A stretch of 64,000 bases of DNA from Escherichia coli (GTDB lineage Bacteria > Pseudomonadota > Gammaproteobacteria > Enterobacterales > Enterobacteriaceae): NCBI RefSeq assembly GCF_003334335.1, contig NZ_QOWQ01000002.1. One strand, given 5' to 3'. The position numbers were made by a program, and so were the translations under genes. Of the stretch, positions 7,591-40,290 are shown one piece after another. Every line of letters begins with the position of its first letter. Position 1 is the first letter of the stretch. The notes under the pieces are model-generated. The model did not search any database. It was not told where the DNA came from and was given only the letters and a program-made list of their open reading frames with translations.

Positions 7591-14437
<6,847 letters not shown>

Positions 14438-16941: not shown

Positions 16942-18126
16942 TTAATTCAACCGTTCAATCACCATCGCAATTCCCTGACCGCCGCCAATGCACAGTGTTG
17001 CCAGCCCCAGCGTTTTATCGCGTGCCTGCATGGCATGTAATAGTGTGACCAGAATACGAGCACCACTGGCACCGATAGGATGCCCGAGCGCGATGGCCCC
17101 GCCGTTGACATTCACTTTCTCAGAATCAAAGCCCAGGTTTTTCCCAACGGCAAGGAACTGTGCAGCAAATGCTTCATTAGCCTCAATGAGATCAATATCC
17201 GCCAGTTGCAGCCCCGCCAGTTGTAACGCTTTTTGCGTGGCAGGTACTGGCCCCATACCCATCAATGCGGGGGGCACGCCACCGCTGGCATAACTTTTAA
17301 TGCGAGCCAGGGGGGTAAGGCCTGCTGCCAGCGCCGCAGATTCTTCCATAATCACCAGAGCGGCAGCACCGTCGTTAATACCAGACGCGTTCCCAGCGGT
17401 GACTGTTCCTGCTTTATCGAAGGCCGGGCGCAATGCACCTAACGCTTCAGCCGTTGAATTCGCTTTCGGGAATTCGTCTTGACTGAAGACGAAGGTTTTC
17501 TTTCGAGTGACAACATTTACCGGGACGATTTCGGCTGTAAAAGCACCGGACTCAATTGCGGCTGCCGCTTTACGCTGTGAATGTAGCGCCAGTTCATCCT
17601 GCATTTCACGGGTAATTCCGTACTCTTTAGCCACGTTTTCGGCGGTAATCCCCATATGATAACCATGGGTGGCGCACATCAGGCCATCGCGCAGGATTAC
17701 GTCATAAACCTGTCCGTCTCCAAGACGATAACCAGAGCGTGCTTTTGCATCGAGTAAGTAGGGGGCTAAACTCATATTTTCCATACCCCCCGCCACAATG
17801 CTCTGCGCCTGACCTGCCTGAATGGCCTGGGCGGCAAGCGCCACACTTTTAAGACCCGAACCACATACTTTATTGACCGTGAATCCGCACACCGTTTCTG
17901 CCAGCCCGCTTTTTAACAGTGCCTGACGCGCCGGATTTTGCCCCAGCCCGGCTTGTAACACGTTACCCATAATCACTTCATCAACGTGTTGTGAATCGAT
18001 TTTTGCACGTTCAATGGCGGCTTTAATTACTGTCGCCCCCAGGTCGATGGCGCTGGTGGAAGCGAGTGAACCGTTAAAACTACCGATAGCAGTACGTACC
18101 GCACTGACGATGACACAATTTTTCAT
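16942..18126 (-). CDS. atoB: Acetyl-CoA acetyltransferase (thiolase II), 394 aa
   Basis: Full ORF; thiolase active-site motifs ([17 protein letters not shown]) visible. Confidence 0.95.
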
Positions 18127-18156
18127 TTTATATTCCTTCTGTTTGTAGGGGTGCCG

Positions 18157-19479
18157 TCAGAACAGCGTTAAACCAATGACGAAAATGACACCGGAGAAGA
18201 GCAGGGCAGTGATGCAGTAGCCCATGATGTCGCGGACACCGAGTCCGGCGATTGCCAGTGCTGGCAGCGCCCAGAATGGTTGTGCCATGTTCATCCATTG
18301 CTCGCCGTAGGCGATCGCCATTACCGATTTACCGAGATCAGCGCCCAGCGCCTGGGCTGCGGGTATCACGAAAGGTCCCTGAATAACCCAGTGACCGCCG
18401 CCAGACGGAACGGCGAAGTTAATCAGTGCAGAACTAAAAAAGGTCATTACCGGGAAGGTGTCTTTGTTCGCAACATTGATGAAGAATTCGGTAATGAGTC
18501 CGCCCAGACCGGAATGCTCCATCATCAGTTGGATCCCAGCGTAGAAGGGGAATTGCACCAGAATACCGGCAGTACTGCGTGCTGCCGCGCTGATAGCACG
18601 CATATAAGCCATTGGCGTTTTATGTAGCAGCAGACCCGCAATCATAAACATCAGGTTGACGGTATTGATGGTGATGTTGAAGCCATGTTCGCTGAAGTAC
18701 ATCGCAAGGTAAGCGATACCGAGTGCGCCGATGATCAACGTCAGAATGCGGCTTTCTTCCAGTCGCTCGGATGGTGGGGCATCTTTCGGTAGCTGCTTTT
18801 GAAAATCAGCCTCTTCCATGAGTAGTTTTGGATCGATACTCACCACGTCAGACGGTTTTGGCATCATCATGCGGGTGATAAATGGCATCACCACAATCAA
18901 CGCCACAGTGATGAAAATGTTAAAACCACTGAACAGAGTATCGCCCACCGGGATCAGCCCGGCGATATGCTCAACCGGGTTGCCCGGTGTTGCAGCCAAC
19001 AGAGGCATTGATCCAGAGAAGCCGCCACCCCAGGTGAGAAAACCAATGTAGGCGCAGGCAATGAGCAACGGATAATCAGAACCGGGGACTCGCCGGGCGA
19101 CTTCACGGGCAAACATTGCGCCGACAACCAAACCAAATCCCCAGTTGATGACACAAGCGACTGAACCGAAGAAAGTGACCAGCATGACGCCCTGTACGGG
19201 CGTCTTTGCGGCGGAGGCGGCAGTACGCAGCAAACTTTTCACCGGAGCAGAGCTGGCAAGGGCATGACCGGTAACGATGATAAGCGCCATCTGCATACCA
19301 AACGCCAGCAAGTTCCAGAAACCGTCACCCCACATTTTCACCATGCTGATCGGCGTTTGTGGTGTTAACCAAAGCGCGATCACGAATGTTAGCAATGTCA
19401 GCAACATGGCAAAGATCAGTGGATCGGGAAGCCACCGGCTGACAAAACGCGTCATAAAACGCGATATGCGACCAATCAT
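18157..19479 (-). CDS. atoE: Short-chain fatty acid transporter, 440 aa
   Basis: Full ORF, multi-pass membrane protein; operon position between atoA and atoB. Confidence 0.93.
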   Translation of the reverse strand: MIGRISRFMTRFVSRWLPDPLIFAMLLTLLTFVIALWLTPQTPISMVKMWGDGFWNLLAFGMQMALIIVTGHALASSAPVKSLLRTAASAAKTPVQGVMLVTFFGSVACVINWGFGLVVGAMFAREVARRVPGSDYPLLIACAYIGFLTWGGGFSGSMPLLAATPGNPVEHIAGLIPVGDTLFSGFNIFITVALIVVMPFITRMMMPKPSDVVSIDPKLLMEEADFQKQLPKDAPPSERLEESRILTLIIGALGIAYLAMYFSEHGFNITINTVNLMFMIAGLLLHKTPMAYMRAISAAARSTAGILVQFPFYAGIQLMMEHSGLGGLITEFFINVANKDTFPVMTFFSSALINFAVPSGGGHWVIQGPFVIPAAQALGADLGKSVMAIAYGEQWMNMAQPFWALPALAIAGLGVRDIMGYCITALLFSGVIFVIGLTLF

Positions 19480-20126
19480 AAATCACCCCGTTGCGTATTC
19501 AGATCGGCGGCGACTTCAAACCGAGCTTCTGTTTTGGCACGCACGGTGGCTAAATCACACCCGTCGGCAATTTCGGTGAGCCACATTTTGCCGTCAATAA
19601 AACGAAAGACAGCCAGTTCAGTAACCAGCATATGCACCGCATGTTGCGCAGTGAGTGGCATGGTGCAGCGGCGCAAAATTTTTGCTGAACCATCTTTGGC
19701 GCAATGTTCCATGGCGATGATCACTTTGCGCGACCCGGTCACCAGATCCATCGCGCCACCCATACCGGGCACCATTTTCCCAGGCACTACCCAGTTCGCG
19801 AGGTTTGCTTCTTCGTCTACTTGCAAACCGCCGAGCACGCAGGCATCAATATGACCGCCACGGATTAGCGCAAATGACATGGCGCTATCAAACATGGCTG
19901 CACCGGGTAAAACACCGCACGGTTGCCCGCCAGCGTTCACCAGATCTGGATGCGCTGTCGTGACCGGGCCTAAACCGAGGAAGCCGTTTTCCGATTGCAG
20001 AGTGATATGAATACCCTCCGGTAAATAATTGGCGACCATTGTGGGTAAACCGATCCCTAAGTTAACGATGTCACCATCACGAAGCTCTTGCGCCACACGG
20101 CGCGCAATACGTTGTTTCGCATCCAT
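19476..20126 (-). CDS. atoA: Acetate/acetoacetate CoA-transferase beta subunit, 216 aa
   Basis: Full ORF; 4-nt overlap with atoE. Confidence 0.95.
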   Translation of the reverse strand: MDAKQRIARRVAQELRDGDIVNLGIGLPTMVANYLPEGIHITLQSENGFLGLGPVTTAHPDLVNAGGQPCGVLPGAAMFDSAMSFALIRGGHIDACVLGGLQVDEEANLANWVVPGKMVPGMGGAMDLVTGSRKVIIAMEHCAKDGSAKILRRCTMPLTAQHAVHMLVTELAVFRFIDGKMWLTEIADGCDLATVRAKTEARFEVAADLNTQRGDL

Positions 20127-20788
20127 TATTTGCTCTCCTGTGAAACGATGATGTAGTCGATAACGGCACCAGGGGTGACAATATGGTCAGGTTGCAGCTC
20201 GCCGGTTTCGACCAGTTCATCTGGCTCTACCAGCGTGATATCAGCCGCAAGGGCTATCAGGGGGTTAAAGTTGCGGGCGCTAAGTTGATAGGTCAGGTTG
20301 CCAAGTGTGTCGCAACGATGAGCGCGAATTAGCGCCAGGTCGGCGCGCAGTGGGCGTTCGAGCAGCCAGGTTTTACCGTCGAGTGTCAGTGTCTGTTTGC
20401 CTTCCTCTACGACGGTGCCGACACCCGTTGGGGTGAGAAAACCACCAAGTCCAGCTCCACCACAGCGAATTTGCTCGATTAGCGTACCTTGCGGCACCAG
20501 AACGACGTCCATCTCACCAGATATCATGCGCCGACCTGTTTCCGGGTTGGTGCCGATATGTGAAGCAATCACTTTGCGGACTCGACCATTGACGATGAGC
20601 GGACCGATGCCGGTATCAACAAACGCGGTATCATTGGCTATCAATGTCAGGTCGCGAACACCAGATTCCAGTAATGCTTCAACCAGGCGGGATGGAGTGC
20701 CAATCCCCATAAATCCGCCCACCATGATGGTCATGCCGTCACGAAAGAAGCCGGTGGCGTCTTGTAATGTCATCAATTTTGTTTTCAT
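20126..20788 (-). CDS. atoD: Acetate/acetoacetate CoA-transferase alpha subunit, 220 aa
   Basis: Full ORF; 1-nt overlap with atoA; SD GAGGG upstream. Confidence 0.95.
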
Positions 20789-20833
20789 TTTTTATCCCTC
20801 TTGCATACACCGTTGTGGGTACAGTCAGGCAAT

Positions 20834-20849
20834 AGCAAGGGGAGTGCCA
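20834..20849 (-). promoter_or_regulatory. Sigma-54 (-24/-12) promoter of atoDAEB
   Basis: Minus strand reads TGGCAC-tcccc-TTGCT, matching TGGCAC-N5-TTGCW; about 45 nt upstream of the atoD ATG. Confidence 0.8.
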
Positions 20850-20931
20850 GAATGAGATTATTGGATTTAGTTATTTAACTAATTGAATATGAAGGGATAA
20901 ATTGGATGGGGATTTATAAGGAGAATGAGCG

Positions 20932-20972
20932 GCTATGCAGAAAATTGCGCACTGTGCAAATTTCTGCATAGC
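20932..20972. promoter_or_regulatory. AtoC upstream activator site: inverted 20-bp repeat
   Basis: gctatgcagaaaattgcgca / ctgtgcaaatttctgcatagc, arms 18/20 complementary, centred about 110 bp upstream of the sigma-54 promoter. Confidence 0.75.
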
Positions 20973-20983
20973 AAGTTTTGGTG

Positions 20984-22369
20984 TTATACATCCGCCGGAT
21001 CGATACCGTATTCCTGGAGTTTATACATCAATGCACGGCGACTGATGCCCAGCATTAAAGCAGTGCGGGTTCGGTTTCCTTCTTGTTGTTCCAGCACTTC
21101 CATAATGATGCGTTTTTCGACGCGTTTAATTTCCTCTTTTAAATTACGCTCACCGACAGGGGCTGTTTTTACCTCGCCAGCATTACAGACTGGCTGACGA
21201 ATCTGTGGCGGAAGATCCTCAGAAAAAATGATCGGGCCTGAATTCATCACGACGGCGCGTTCAATAACGTTGGAAAGCTCTCGAATATTTCCCGGCCATG
21301 ACCAGGCGGTAAGCAGTGACATTGCCATCGGATCGATGTCGATAATATCGCGCTGATTCTCACTACTGAATTTTTGCAAAAAGTGATTAGCTAACAGGGA
21401 AATATCTTCCCGGCGATCGCGCAGAGGCGGCAGTATTAAATGAATAACGTTAAGGCGATAAAAGAGATCTTCACGGAAGGTGCCTTCTTTTACCATTGCC
21501 TGCAAGTCGCGGTTGGTGGCAGCAATGATGCGGATATCAACTTTTATGGTCTGATGGCCGCCAATCCGTTCAAATTCCCGTTCCTGTAGAATGCGTAGTA
21601 ATTTGGCTTGTAGTACCAGCGGCATTTCGCCAATTTCGTCGAGGAGCAGAGTACCTTCGTTGGCTCGTTCAAATAATCCCTGACGCAAGGTTTGTGCACC
21701 AGTAAATGCACCTTTTTCATGACCAAACAGTTCACTTTCGAGCAACGATTCCGGCAGCGCCGCGCAGTTGACTTTAATGAACGGCCCCTTTGCCCGCCGC
21801 GAATTGTAGTGAATCGCTCTGGCAATCAACTCTTTCCCGGTGCCGCTTTCACCGCTAATCAAGACGCTGGCCTGAGAAAGGGCAATTTTGGCGGTGTCTT
21901 TGCAGATGTCCATCATCGCCGGGCTGTTGGTGAGAATGTGCCCCCATTGCCAGCTGGTGCTCAGTGCCTGGTGCAGATGACGGATCTCTTTTTTCATTGA
22001 CTGGAGTTGTAAAGCGCGCTGAACGATTAAATTCAACTCATCGAGATCAAACGGTTTAATAACATAGTCGAAGGCTCCGCAGCGTAGCGCTTCGACGGCG
22101 GTTTCCACTTCCGCATAGGCCGTCATCAGAATAACGGGTGTCCGGGTCTCATGGCTGCGCATCTCCTTTAGTGCCTTGATGCCGTCCATCTCTGGCATGC
22201 GGATATCCATCAACACCACATCAGGGTGAATATCGGCAAACAGGTGTAATGCTGTGCGTCCGTTGTTCGCACAATGTGTTTCGAATCCTTGTAGTGCAAA
22301 AGCGGTGCTCAGCATACGGCGAACATTATCTTCATCATCCACAATAAGGATGCGATTAATAGCAGTCAT
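20984..22369 (-). CDS. atoC: Sigma-54-dependent response regulator (NtrC family), 461 aa
   Basis: Receiver domain, AAA+ motifs GESGTGKE and GAFTGA, C-terminal HTH. Confidence 0.95.
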   Translation of the reverse strand: MTAINRILIVDDEDNVRRMLSTAFALQGFETHCANNGRTALHLFADIHPDVVLMDIRMPEMDGIKALKEMRSHETRTPVILMTAYAEVETAVEALRCGAFDYVIKPFDLDELNLIVQRALQLQSMKKEIRHLHQALSTSWQWGHILTNSPAMMDICKDTAKIALSQASVLISGESGTGKELIARAIHYNSRRAKGPFIKVNCAALPESLLESELFGHEKGAFTGAQTLRQGLFERANEGTLLLDEIGEMPLVLQAKLLRILQEREFERIGGHQTIKVDIRIIAATNRDLQAMVKEGTFREDLFYRLNVIHLILPPLRDRREDISLLANHFLQKFSSENQRDIIDIDPMAMSLLTAWSWPGNIRELSNVIERAVVMNSGPIIFSEDLPPQIRQPVCNAGEVKTAPVGERNLKEEIKRVEKRIIMEVLEQQEGNRTRTALMLGISRRALMYKLQEYGIDPADV

Positions 22370-24192
22370 ACAGTCTGATTTCCCTGCGGGTTGATCGGTA
22401 AAATAAGCGTGAAGGTTGCGCCGTAGCCCGGCAAACTGGCGACGCGAATATCACCCTGATGGGCATTAATGATGCGTTGACTTAACGCCAGACCAAGCCC
22501 GGTTCCTGAGGCTTTGGTGGTGAAAAAGGGATCGAAGATCTTTTTTTGCAGCGAGAGATCAATGCCACAGCCGTTGTCCTCTATCGAAATGGCCTGTTGT
22601 GAGTCGCTGTATTGCCAGGTTTGAATGCGAATTTTCCCTCGTGCGCTGATAGCCTGGACGGCATTGATCAGGATATTCAGTAGTACCTGTTTGAGCAGTT
22701 CACGATCGGCGTTAATCGGGCTTAATTCATTATCCAGTTCGCTTATGAAGTCGACCCGCGCTTGTACGCCGGCGGTTTGTACCAGTACCAGAGTTTCTTC
22801 AACCAATGCATTGAGGCTGACTTGTTGCCATTGACTGTGGCGTGGACGTGAAAATTCGAGCAATTGCTGAATAACTTTGTTAATTGAATCGATTTCTTTG
22901 AGTACTACGGACAGATATTCCTGATGTATTGGGTCACTGGTTTGTTGGCGCAAGATCTGTACATAACCACGAATAGCCGTTAACGGATTACGTACTTCAT
23001 GCGCGACGCCAGCCATCAGCTCACCCAGTGTGGCGAGGCGTTCTGCTTGCGCCATGCGGCGCTGGGTTTCTTTGCGGGCAGTTAAATCAGAGAAAATCAC
23101 CAAAGCACCTATCATTTCACCGTGCGTGTTATGAATACGACTGGTAGTGACACTGAGTTCAATGGTGCGGTCACGACCTGGAAAACTGATCTCCAGCGCC
23201 ACATGTTCGGTGCCATGTTCCAGCGTATCCAGTACTGGACTGTAGAACTGAGTATTGTCGAACAACATGGAGTAAGGCTGCCCTACCAGTTCATGGCGTT
23301 GATAGCCAGTGATAACTTCTGCTGCTGGGTTCATGGTGGTTACATCACCCTGGCGGTCAATGGCAATGACGCCATCGGCAGCGTTTTCAATAATCAGATC
23401 GTTAAGTGTCCGCGTTTCACGCAGTGCCTGGGCGAGGTTATTAACACTCTGACTGATTTGCCCCATTTCACCGGGCAATTGTGGTAATCGAGTGGGAATA
23501 TTTTGTGCCAGAGTCGAGAGGCCATCGGTGATGATATCAATATTGGCGCTCAGGCGACGGGAGAAAAGGACAATCAACAGCAGGCTTATCAGCAAACCAG
23601 CGGTTAGCACAATGATAATCCTCACATCCATTTTCCAGGCCTGGCGGCGAATATCTTCGGTTAATTCATTGGCCCAGATATAGCCGAGGATTTCACCATT
23701 ACGCTCAATGGGGAGCATTGAATTCAAAATATCGCCGCGCACCTGCCTGCCTGAATAAACTAAAGGGGTATTTGTACGCATCACTTCGCGACCAGGGTGA
23801 TCTGCGGCAATGGTAACGCCGACATTATTCTGATATAGCGCTGAAGGCGCGTAGGTGATTATCGCATCCAGCATTTTGTTGTAATAACCAGCACCGATGC
23901 CAGGGAAGGCGTGAGTGATATTTTCGGTAATGGGGGCAAGTTCTGCATTTAATGCGCGGATACGCTCCTCACGTGGTAAGTCGATGTAGAGATCATAGCG
24001 ATCGCCTAGTGCCTGATTAAGCAGGTTGACCACGGCAGAAAGTTTTTTCTCTTTTTCAGATAAGACTGCTGAACGTCCTTCCGTTTCTACGATATAACCA
24101 ATAGTAAGCGTTGGGACAATGACCATCAGGATTGCCATCAGGATCATTTGATTGCGTAAGCGGCGTGGATAAATCCACTTCATATAATGCAT
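22366..24192 (-). CDS. atoS: Sensor histidine kinase, 608 aa
   Basis: Track ORF trimmed to MHYMKW start; H-box HEVRNPL and ATPase motifs; 4-nt overlap with atoC. Confidence 0.9.
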   Translation of the reverse strand: MHYMKWIYPRRLRNQMILMAILMVIVPTLTIGYIVETEGRSAVLSEKEKKLSAVVNLLNQALGDRYDLYIDLPREERIRALNAELAPITENITHAFPGIGAGYYNKMLDAIITYAPSALYQNNVGVTIAADHPGREVMRTNTPLVYSGRQVRGDILNSMLPIERNGEILGYIWANELTEDIRRQAWKMDVRIIIVLTAGLLISLLLIVLFSRRLSANIDIITDGLSTLAQNIPTRLPQLPGEMGQISQSVNNLAQALRETRTLNDLIIENAADGVIAIDRQGDVTTMNPAAEVITGYQRHELVGQPYSMLFDNTQFYSPVLDTLEHGTEHVALEISFPGRDRTIELSVTTSRIHNTHGEMIGALVIFSDLTARKETQRRMAQAERLATLGELMAGVAHEVRNPLTAIRGYVQILRQQTSDPIHQEYLSVVLKEIDSINKVIQQLLEFSRPRHSQWQQVSLNALVEETLVLVQTAGVQARVDFISELDNELSPINADRELLKQVLLNILINAVQAISARGKIRIQTWQYSDSQQAISIEDNGCGIDLSLQKKIFDPFFTTKASGTGLGLALSQRIINAHQGDIRVASLPGYGATFTLILPINPQGNQTV

Positions 24193-39129: not shown

Positions 39130-40290
39130 ATGCGCCACATCCGGCATGGTATGCCGGATGTGGCGTATGCTGATAAGACGCGCCAGCGTCGCATCAGGCA
39201 ACCGGCTCGGGCGTTAGATGTTGGATGCGGCGTAACCGCCTTATCCAACCTACGGGGTGGAGCACTTCACAGCGGTGTAGGCCTGATAAGACGCGCCAGC
39301 GTCGCATCAGGCAACCGGCTTGGGCGTTAGATGTCGGATGCGGCGTAACCGCCTTATCCGACCTACGGGGTGGAGCACTTCACAGCGGTGTAGGCCTGAT
39401 AAGACGCGCCAGCGTCGCATCAGGCAACCGGCTCGGACGTTGGATGTCGGATGCGGCGTAACCGCCTTATCCAACCTACGGGGTGGAGCACTTCACAGCG
39501 GTGTAGGCCTGATAAGACGCGCCAGCGTCGCATCAGGCAACCGGCTTGGGCGTTAGATGTCGGATGCGGCGTAACCGCCTTATCCGACCTACGGGGTGGA
39601 GCACTTCACAGCGGTGTAGGCCTGATAAGACGCGCCAGCGTCGCATCAGGCAACCGGCTCGGACGTTGGATGTCGGATGCGGCGTAACCGCCTTATCCAA
39701 CCTACGGGGTGGAGCACTTCACAGCGGTGTAGGCCTGATAAGACGCGCCAGCGTCGCATCAGGCAACCGGCTCGGGCGTTGGATGTCGGATGCGGCGTGA
39801 CCGCCTTGTCTGACCTACGGGGTGCCGCACTTCACAGCGGTGTAGGCCTGATAAGACGCGCCAGCGTCGCATCAGGCAACCGGCTCGGGCGTTGGATGTC
39901 GGATGCGGCGTGACCGCCTTGTCTGACCTACGGGGTGCCGCACTTCACAGCGGTGTAGGCCTGATAAGACGCGCCAGCGTCGCATCAGGCAACCGGCTCG
40001 GGCGTTGGATGTCGGATGCGGCGTGACCGCCTTGTCTGACCTACGGGGTGCCGCACTTCACAGCGGTGTAGGCCTGATAAGACGCGCCAGCGTCGCATCA
40101 GGCAACCGGCTCGGGCGTTGGATGTCGGATGCGGCGTGACCGCCTTGTCTGACCTACGGGGTGCCGCACTTCACAGCGGTGTAGGCCTGATAAGACGCGC
40201 CAGCGTCGCATCAGGCAACCGGCTCGGGCGTTGGATGTCGGATGCGGCGTGACCGCCTTGTCTGACCTACGGGGTGCCGCACTTCACGGC
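39130..40290. repeat. Large tandem BIME array: about ten 113-bp units, each with two inverted REPs; three 226-bp double units of alternating variants, then five near-identical 113-bp units
   Basis: Periodicity counted directly (103+123 bp alternation, then 113 bp steps at 39791, 39904, 40017, 40130, 40243); phantom 78-84 aa ORFs in track are repeat artefacts. Confidence 0.9.

Follow-up and report, generated by a model that had tools for sequence, protein, structure and literature searches.

The atoC–atoD spacer of an Escherichia coli contig as the sigma-54-dependent control region of atoDAEB: published AtoC sites, a conserved module layout, and a candidate IHF site

[quoted passage not shown] According to the literature, acetoacetate leads, via AtoS, to the phosphorylation of AtoC, which is named among 12 enhancer-binding proteins of E. 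coli (PMC8743547). Two AtoC sites have been described upstream of atoD, GCTATGCAGAAATTTGCACA at −184 to −165 and GCTATGCAGAAAATTGCGCA at −163 to −144 relative to the ATG; both are experimentally verified and ChIP-positive, and together they are described as an inverted palindrome of 40 bp that drives expression dependent on sigma-54 (PMC3118216). The sequence attcTGGCACTCCCCTTGCTATtgcc, located at −61 to −44, is tabulated among 18 known sigma-54 promoters, and atoD expression is 12.6-fold higher upon sigma-54 overexpression and 2.3-fold lower in an rpoN deletion strain (PMC2831329). Sigma-54 occupies this promoter in vivo, as indicated by the ChIP-seq peak OS21 on CTGGCACTCCCCTTGCT upstream of atoD, carrying an EcoCyc-confirmed flag (PMC4591121), and in vitro, where genomic SELEX demonstrated binding of the RpoN holoenzyme to the atoC>atoD spacer (PMC8743547).

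The locus analysed here lies in a 64-kb stretch of DNA from E. coli (contig NZ_QOWQ01000002.1), referred to below as the window. On the minus strand, between 16.9 and 24.2 kb, it comprises, in this order, atoS, atoC, a spacer of about 195–196 bp, atoD, atoA, atoE, and atoB. The atoS gene (22366..24192, with the start taken from the RefSeq annotation of K-12, while the longest open reading frame extends to 24204) codes for a sensor histidine kinase scoring 997 bits against the NCBIfam equivalog AtoS (cutoff 646), and atoC occupies positions 20984..22369. The regulated operon atoDAEB (16942..20788), identified by NCBIfam matches and RefSeq annotation, comprises atoD (20126–20788), atoA (19476–20126), atoE (18157–19479), and atoB (16942–18126), all on the minus strand.

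The window is of K-12-like E. coli. Many E. coli chromosomes, with the neighbouring genes annotated as atoC and atoD, match the 601 bp around the atoC–atoD spacer at 100% identity. A 241-bp spacer query showed 100% identity to K-12 MG1655, and only six positions differ between the surrounding 24.2 kb and one MG1655 assembly. One of the six, position 13936, falls within yfaS, an open reading frame of the alpha-2-macroglobulin family (9818–14437, plus strand), which in the window is intact, with 1539 codons and TGG at 13934–13936; in one MG1655 assembly this codon is TGA and is annotated as an 'internal stop'. The atoC–atoD junction (20600–21200) is present in 3926 of 5426 complete E. coli genomes, about 28% being devoid of it. 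An Rfam scan of the same interval at E <= 1 found no family.

AtoC, a sigma-54 enhancer-binding response regulator of 461 amino acids, was assigned by its match to an NCBIfam equivalog (NF008469, 1004 bits with a cutoff of 714), its Pfam domains, and its motifs. Its N-terminal Response_reg domain (residues 7–115, E = 1e-31) contains the phospho-acceptor D55 within DIRMP, and the central part comprises Sigma54_activat (145–311, E = 2e-75) together with AAA_lid_14. Walker A (GESGTGKE, 173–180), GAFTGA (220–225), and Walker B (LLLDE, 241–245) are all present, so the AAA+ and GAFTGA motifs attributed to AtoC in a first-pass annotation of this DNA are indeed there. The C-terminus carries a Fis-type helix-turn-helix (HTH_8, 415–454, E = 3e-14).

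The AtoC upstream activating sequence (20932..20972) consists of two inverted 20-bp sites (GCTATGCAGAAWWTTGCRCA) with one central base. Read from 20972 to 20932 it is GCTATGCAGAAATTTGCACA-G-TGCGCAATTTTCTGCATAGC, with arms of 20 nucleotides complementary at 18 of 20 positions and separated by 1 nucleotide. The first-pass annotation had described it as a 41-bp imperfect palindrome starting 12 bp after the end of atoC, and both its coordinates and its position proved correct: the stop codon TAA lies at 20986–20984 and is followed by 11 nucleotides, the palindrome beginning with the 12th base. It ranks first among the close inverted repeats of the 64 kb and is the longest of them. The second-best is found at 39130–39168, with 18-nucleotide arms, ATGCGCCACATCCGGCAT and ATGCCGGATGTGGCGTAT, showing 94% complementarity around a 3-nucleotide loop. 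The AtoC half-site pattern, with up to three mismatches allowed, occurs twice in the window, in the two arms, against 0.04 occurrences expected. When set beside the published AtoC sites, the arms at 20972–20953 and 20951–20932 are identical to them letter for letter, and since 20972 − 20788 = 184 and 20932 − 20788 = 144, their distances from the atoD ATG match exactly as well (PMC3118216).

The sigma-54 (−24/−12) promoter, TGGCACTCCCCTTGCT, is located on the minus strand at 20834..20849, precisely where the first-pass annotation had placed it, and its assignment is based on an exact pattern match, a matrix, the literature, and conservation. It comprises TGGCAC (20849–20844), a 5-nucleotide spacer TCCCC, and TTGCT (20838–20834), in which, following TGGCAC-N5-TTGCW, the GG and GC dinucleotides are set ten bases apart. 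This pattern has a single exact match in the 64 kb, both strands included, against 0.18 expected. Allowing one mismatch makes the pattern uninformative (one match in the window, 4.2 expected), and as it does not exceed chance, the exact match and a matrix were used instead. The matrix was built in a leave-one-out manner from the known E. coli sigma-54 promoters tabulated in PMC2831329, 17 once atoD is set aside. It ranked the atoD site first among approximately 128,000 positions, with 14.9 bits versus 12.5 for the runner-up, and this score lies within the range of 2.4–21.0 bits obtained when each of the 18 known sigma-54 promoters was scored by the same leave-one-out procedure. The promoter is oriented along the strand of atoD, and the predicted start of transcription lies about 35 nucleotides ahead of the ATG.

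Two natural variants in and next to the promoter deserve mention. In E. coli CUVM53 (L085, 1501–1720) a deletion begins within the −24/−12 spacer, after TGGCACTCC (about position 20840 of the window), and takes out the −12 element, the leader, and the N-terminus of AtoD; atoD is annotated there as a pseudogene. At position 20830, four bases beyond the −12 TTGCT, the K-12 type carries G (TTGCTATTGCC), and C (ATTCCC) is found in five divergent E. coli alleles, in the other Escherichia, and in all five Citrobacter sequences.

The distance between the centres of the palindrome and the promoter is about 110 bp, as had been claimed earlier, and 103.5 bp separate the palindrome centre from the GG dinucleotide. 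The intervening 82 bp (20850–20931) contain 69.5% A+T, with the local G+C content at 0.30–0.32, in line with the AT-rich segment noted in the first-pass annotation. Within this spacer a candidate IHF site, ATTCAATTAGTTA (20876..20888, minus strand, i.e., in the orientation of atoD), has one mismatch to the consensus WATCAANNNNTTR and is the only match with no more than one mismatch. Its centre precedes the predicted start by about 59 bp, and a location of about −59 is typical of IHF at sigma-54 promoters. IHF has been reported in the literature to occupy 40% of sigma-54-regulated genes in vivo.

The conservation of these elements was followed in a scan with one genome per species, which yielded at least eight AtoC-type loci (L001–L008). 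Seven atoC–atoD spacers were aligned: that of the window, one from another Escherichia (L001, whose AtoC is 90% identical to that of the window), and five from Citrobacter (L002–L006, 83–86% AtoC identity). The palindrome has 31 of 41 columns invariant (76%), the sigma-54 16-mer 69%, the IHF-like 13-mer 6 of 13 (46%), and the leader 23 of 37 (62%); in the two intervening stretches the figures drop to just 9% and 4%. CTGGCA[CT]-N5-CTTGC[AT] is present in all seven spacers, in each of which the enhancer centre is 103.5–106.5 bp, about ten helical turns, away from GG. In six of the seven, exactly one match to the IHF consensus with up to one mismatch lies in the same orientation at an offset of −39 to −41 from GG, amid diverged sequence. 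The 13-mer is also invariant in all seven aligned E. coli sequences. Substitutions in five divergent E. coli alleles (95–98% identity) fall almost exclusively within the two variable stretches, the exceptions being two single changes, the first affecting a degenerate W in the palindrome and the second immediately downstream of the −12 element.

The same arrangement is found in two distant metagenome-assembled genomes (MAGs), one of Nitrospiraceae (L007, 4384–4507) and one deltaproteobacterial (L008, 4371–4534), whose AtoC proteins are 56% identical to that of the window and score at or just under the equivalog cutoff. In both, atoS–atoC is followed by a repeat of the TGCRCA-GG-TGCGCA type abutting or overlapping the atoC stop codon, with the core TGCATA-GG-TGCGCA or TGCGCA-GG-TGCGCA, and then by a sigma-54 promoter, TGGCAY-N5-TTGCW, about 85–130 bp beyond the repeat; the genes after the promoter are atoD–atoA in L007 and an atoE-like gene in L008. 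The half-sites of the two repeats each resemble a pair of TGCNCA submotifs spaced by roughly one helical turn. The fixed offset of the IHF-like 13-mer and the occurrence of the module layout in Citrobacter and the two MAGs are what the comparison of sequences adds to the published picture.

Taken together, the atoC–atoD spacer is almost certainly the native control region of atoDAEB, a classical enhancer-dependent sigma-54 promoter. It is extremely improbable that the −24/−12 match is incidental, with a sigma-70 promoter or read-through from atoSC accounting for most atoDAEB transcription. Strings resembling the sigma-54 pattern with one mismatch are indeed common by chance, but the window holds no second exact match, this site tops the matrix ranking, and a promoter scan of 20700–21100 found no sigma-70-like site. 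Moreover, sigma-54 is bound there in vivo and in vitro, the expression is rpoN-dependent, and the −24/−12 element is conserved across genera and distant phyla. A further question is whether ATTCAATTAGTTA is the exact place of IHF, for which the first-pass annotation suggested the segment between 20860 and 20930: the 13-mer falls inside that segment and its position is conserved, but as a match it is statistically weak. One of such quality arises in 19% of composition-matched shuffles, three further matches with two mismatches are present in the 82-bp spacer, the Citrobacter spacer L006 has none with up to one mismatch, and literature searches on IHF at atoD returned nothing specific to the candidate site. 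IHF might therefore act elsewhere, the bend might be intrinsic to the DNA, or the conserved island might belong to another factor. This is nevertheless rather doubtful in view of the constant orientation and offset in diverged spacers, the invariance within E. coli, the uniqueness of the match at this stringency, the location typical of IHF, and the frequency of IHF at sigma-54-regulated genes. The conserved 13-mer is thus probably the IHF site.

The palindrome could also be viewed as an RNA element, mainly or additionally a hairpin with which the atoSC transcript would end and which stabilises the mRNA or stops read-through into atoDAEB. As RNA it folds at the end of the atoC message into a hairpin of −23.3 kcal/mol (z = −5.2 relative to shuffled sequences), it begins 12 nucleotides past the atoC stop codon, and the equivalent repeat abuts or overlaps that stop codon in both distant MAGs. 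The fold by itself proves nothing, though, as any DNA palindrome yields a hairpin, and an intrinsic terminator was rejected because the palindrome is not followed by a U-tract; a terminator scan made no call. The published binding of AtoC to exactly both 20-mers (PMC3118216) argues against such a role, as does the asymmetry of the inner core TGCACA-N-TGCGCA, where the A/G difference, giving an A–C mismatch in RNA, is kept unrepaired in all seven orthologous spacers. An RNA hairpin as the element's main or additional function is accordingly improbable. A speculative variant, of similarly low probability, is a dual-use element bound as DNA by AtoC and serving, in the same 41 nucleotides, as the 3′ hairpin of atoSC for mRNA protection or insulation of atoDAEB; it would account for the close juxtaposition of enhancer and atoC stop codon seen in E. 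coli, Citrobacter, and the two MAGs. Were it true, then together with the IHF-like 13-mer and the Spot 42-complementary leader described below, four regulatory layers would be stacked in the spacer. The preferred reading of the palindrome remains that of the AtoC enhancer.

The start of atoDAEB transcription is predicted at 20823..20826 (minus strand) from spacing and footprint numbering. The AtoC footprint reportedly spans −146 to −107, which would imply a start at 20825–20826. Canonical spacing, with GG at −25/−24, puts it 2–3 nucleotides away, at 20823, 35 nucleotides ahead of the atoD ATG, and the distance to atoD given in PMC4591121 is the same 35. The atoD leader (20789..20822, minus strand) contains the Shine–Dalgarno sequence GAGGG (20800–20796). 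When folded alone it forms no stable structure (z = 0.58). Across Escherichia and Citrobacter it is nearly as conserved as the promoter.

The atoD mRNA is a reported target of Spot 42, a small RNA of catabolite repression. In the leader, CTGTACCC at 20824–20817 (also written CUGUACCC) is a perfect complement of Spot 42 nucleotides 4–11, as verified on the sequence, and its GTACCCA is invariant in all seven species. The duplex with Spot 42 nucleotides 1–15 reaches −18.9 kcal/mol, a value that includes four pairs with GCCU (20830–20827), which lies upstream of every candidate start and therefore outside the mRNA. For the full-length leader, the duplex energy with Spot 42 (−25.0) is no better than that of shuffles (mean −26.5), an uninformative measure; what stands out is solely the pairing with the small RNA's 5′ end. 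The pairing site would be situated at the extreme 5′ end of the predicted mRNA. As chance gives such an 8-mer four occurrences in the window, and in view of this terminal location, the possible pairing with Spot 42 is treated as a lead only.

The following scheme of activation may be proposed. Sigma-54 RNA polymerase binds 20849..20834 as a closed complex, as the in vitro and in vivo data show (PMC8743547, PMC4591121). AtoS, sensing acetoacetate, phosphorylates AtoC at D55, and AtoC binds both inverted 20-bp sites (20972..20932), where it would form an active AAA+ ring. The AT-rich DNA would then be bent, most likely by IHF at the candidate site ATTCAATTAGTTA, so that the enhancer, about ten helical turns (104–107 bp) from the −24 element, could meet the polymerase by looping across that distance. 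Finally, the GAFTGA loop and ATP hydrolysis would open the promoter, with transcription starting about 35–38 nucleotides ahead of the atoD ATG. The sequence elements, the identity with the published AtoC sites, the domains of AtoC, and the conserved elements and spacing are documented in this analysis or in the literature, and the binding of sigma-54 at the promoter is established by PMC4591121 and PMC8743547. The oligomerisation, the looping, the engagement of sigma-54 by the GAFTGA loop, and the ATPase step are proposed by analogy with the NtrC family, and the exact start and the assignment of the 13-mer to IHF are likewise proposed from what is known of such systems.

The module was already known in detail; the present analysis confirms the observation of the first-pass annotation and supports its interpretation, as every element of the enhancer-binding-protein layout matches published work and nothing contradicts it. 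Its value is that of a positive control for the deduction of regulatory elements from raw sequence, where the enhancer, the IHF region, and the sigma-54 promoter were recovered with no new biology. The candidate IHF 13-mer, the constant spacing, the layout in distant phyla, and the Spot 42-complementary leader are additions that could be of use to builders of acetoacetate biosensors on this promoter, and they could steer the mapping of IHF and small-RNA sites.

The closest known system is the atoDAEB promoter of E. coli K-12 (Matta et al. 2007, Pilalis et al. 2011), which is the very locus analysed here: the MG1655 spacer shows 100% identity to that of the window, and the AtoC 20-mers, their distances from the ATG, and the sigma-54 string are all identical, with no sequence difference. 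In its general design it resembles NtrC/glnAp2, glnHp2, NifA/nifH, and XylR/Pu, having a dyad for an AAA+ activator about 100–150 bp from the −24/−12 element, and an activator, AtoC, equipped with the GAFTGA loop as in the NtrC-, NifA-, and XylR-type systems. As in glnHp2, nifH, and Pu, the intervening segment is AT-rich with an IHF-type bend, here represented by a candidate site. Unlike those types, atoDAEB has a single 41-bp dyad instead of several separate sites, and its enhancer is located directly behind the stop codon of the activator's own gene. A further relative is the prpR–prpBCDE system, likewise a short-chain acid operon with a dedicated sigma-54 activator and, according to the literature, IHF; its promoter core TGGCACACCCCTTGCT is almost identical to TGGCACTCCCCTTGCT of atoDAEB (PMC2831329). 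The two differ in that prpR is divergently transcribed, PrpR is not a two-component response regulator, and the enhancer sequences are different.
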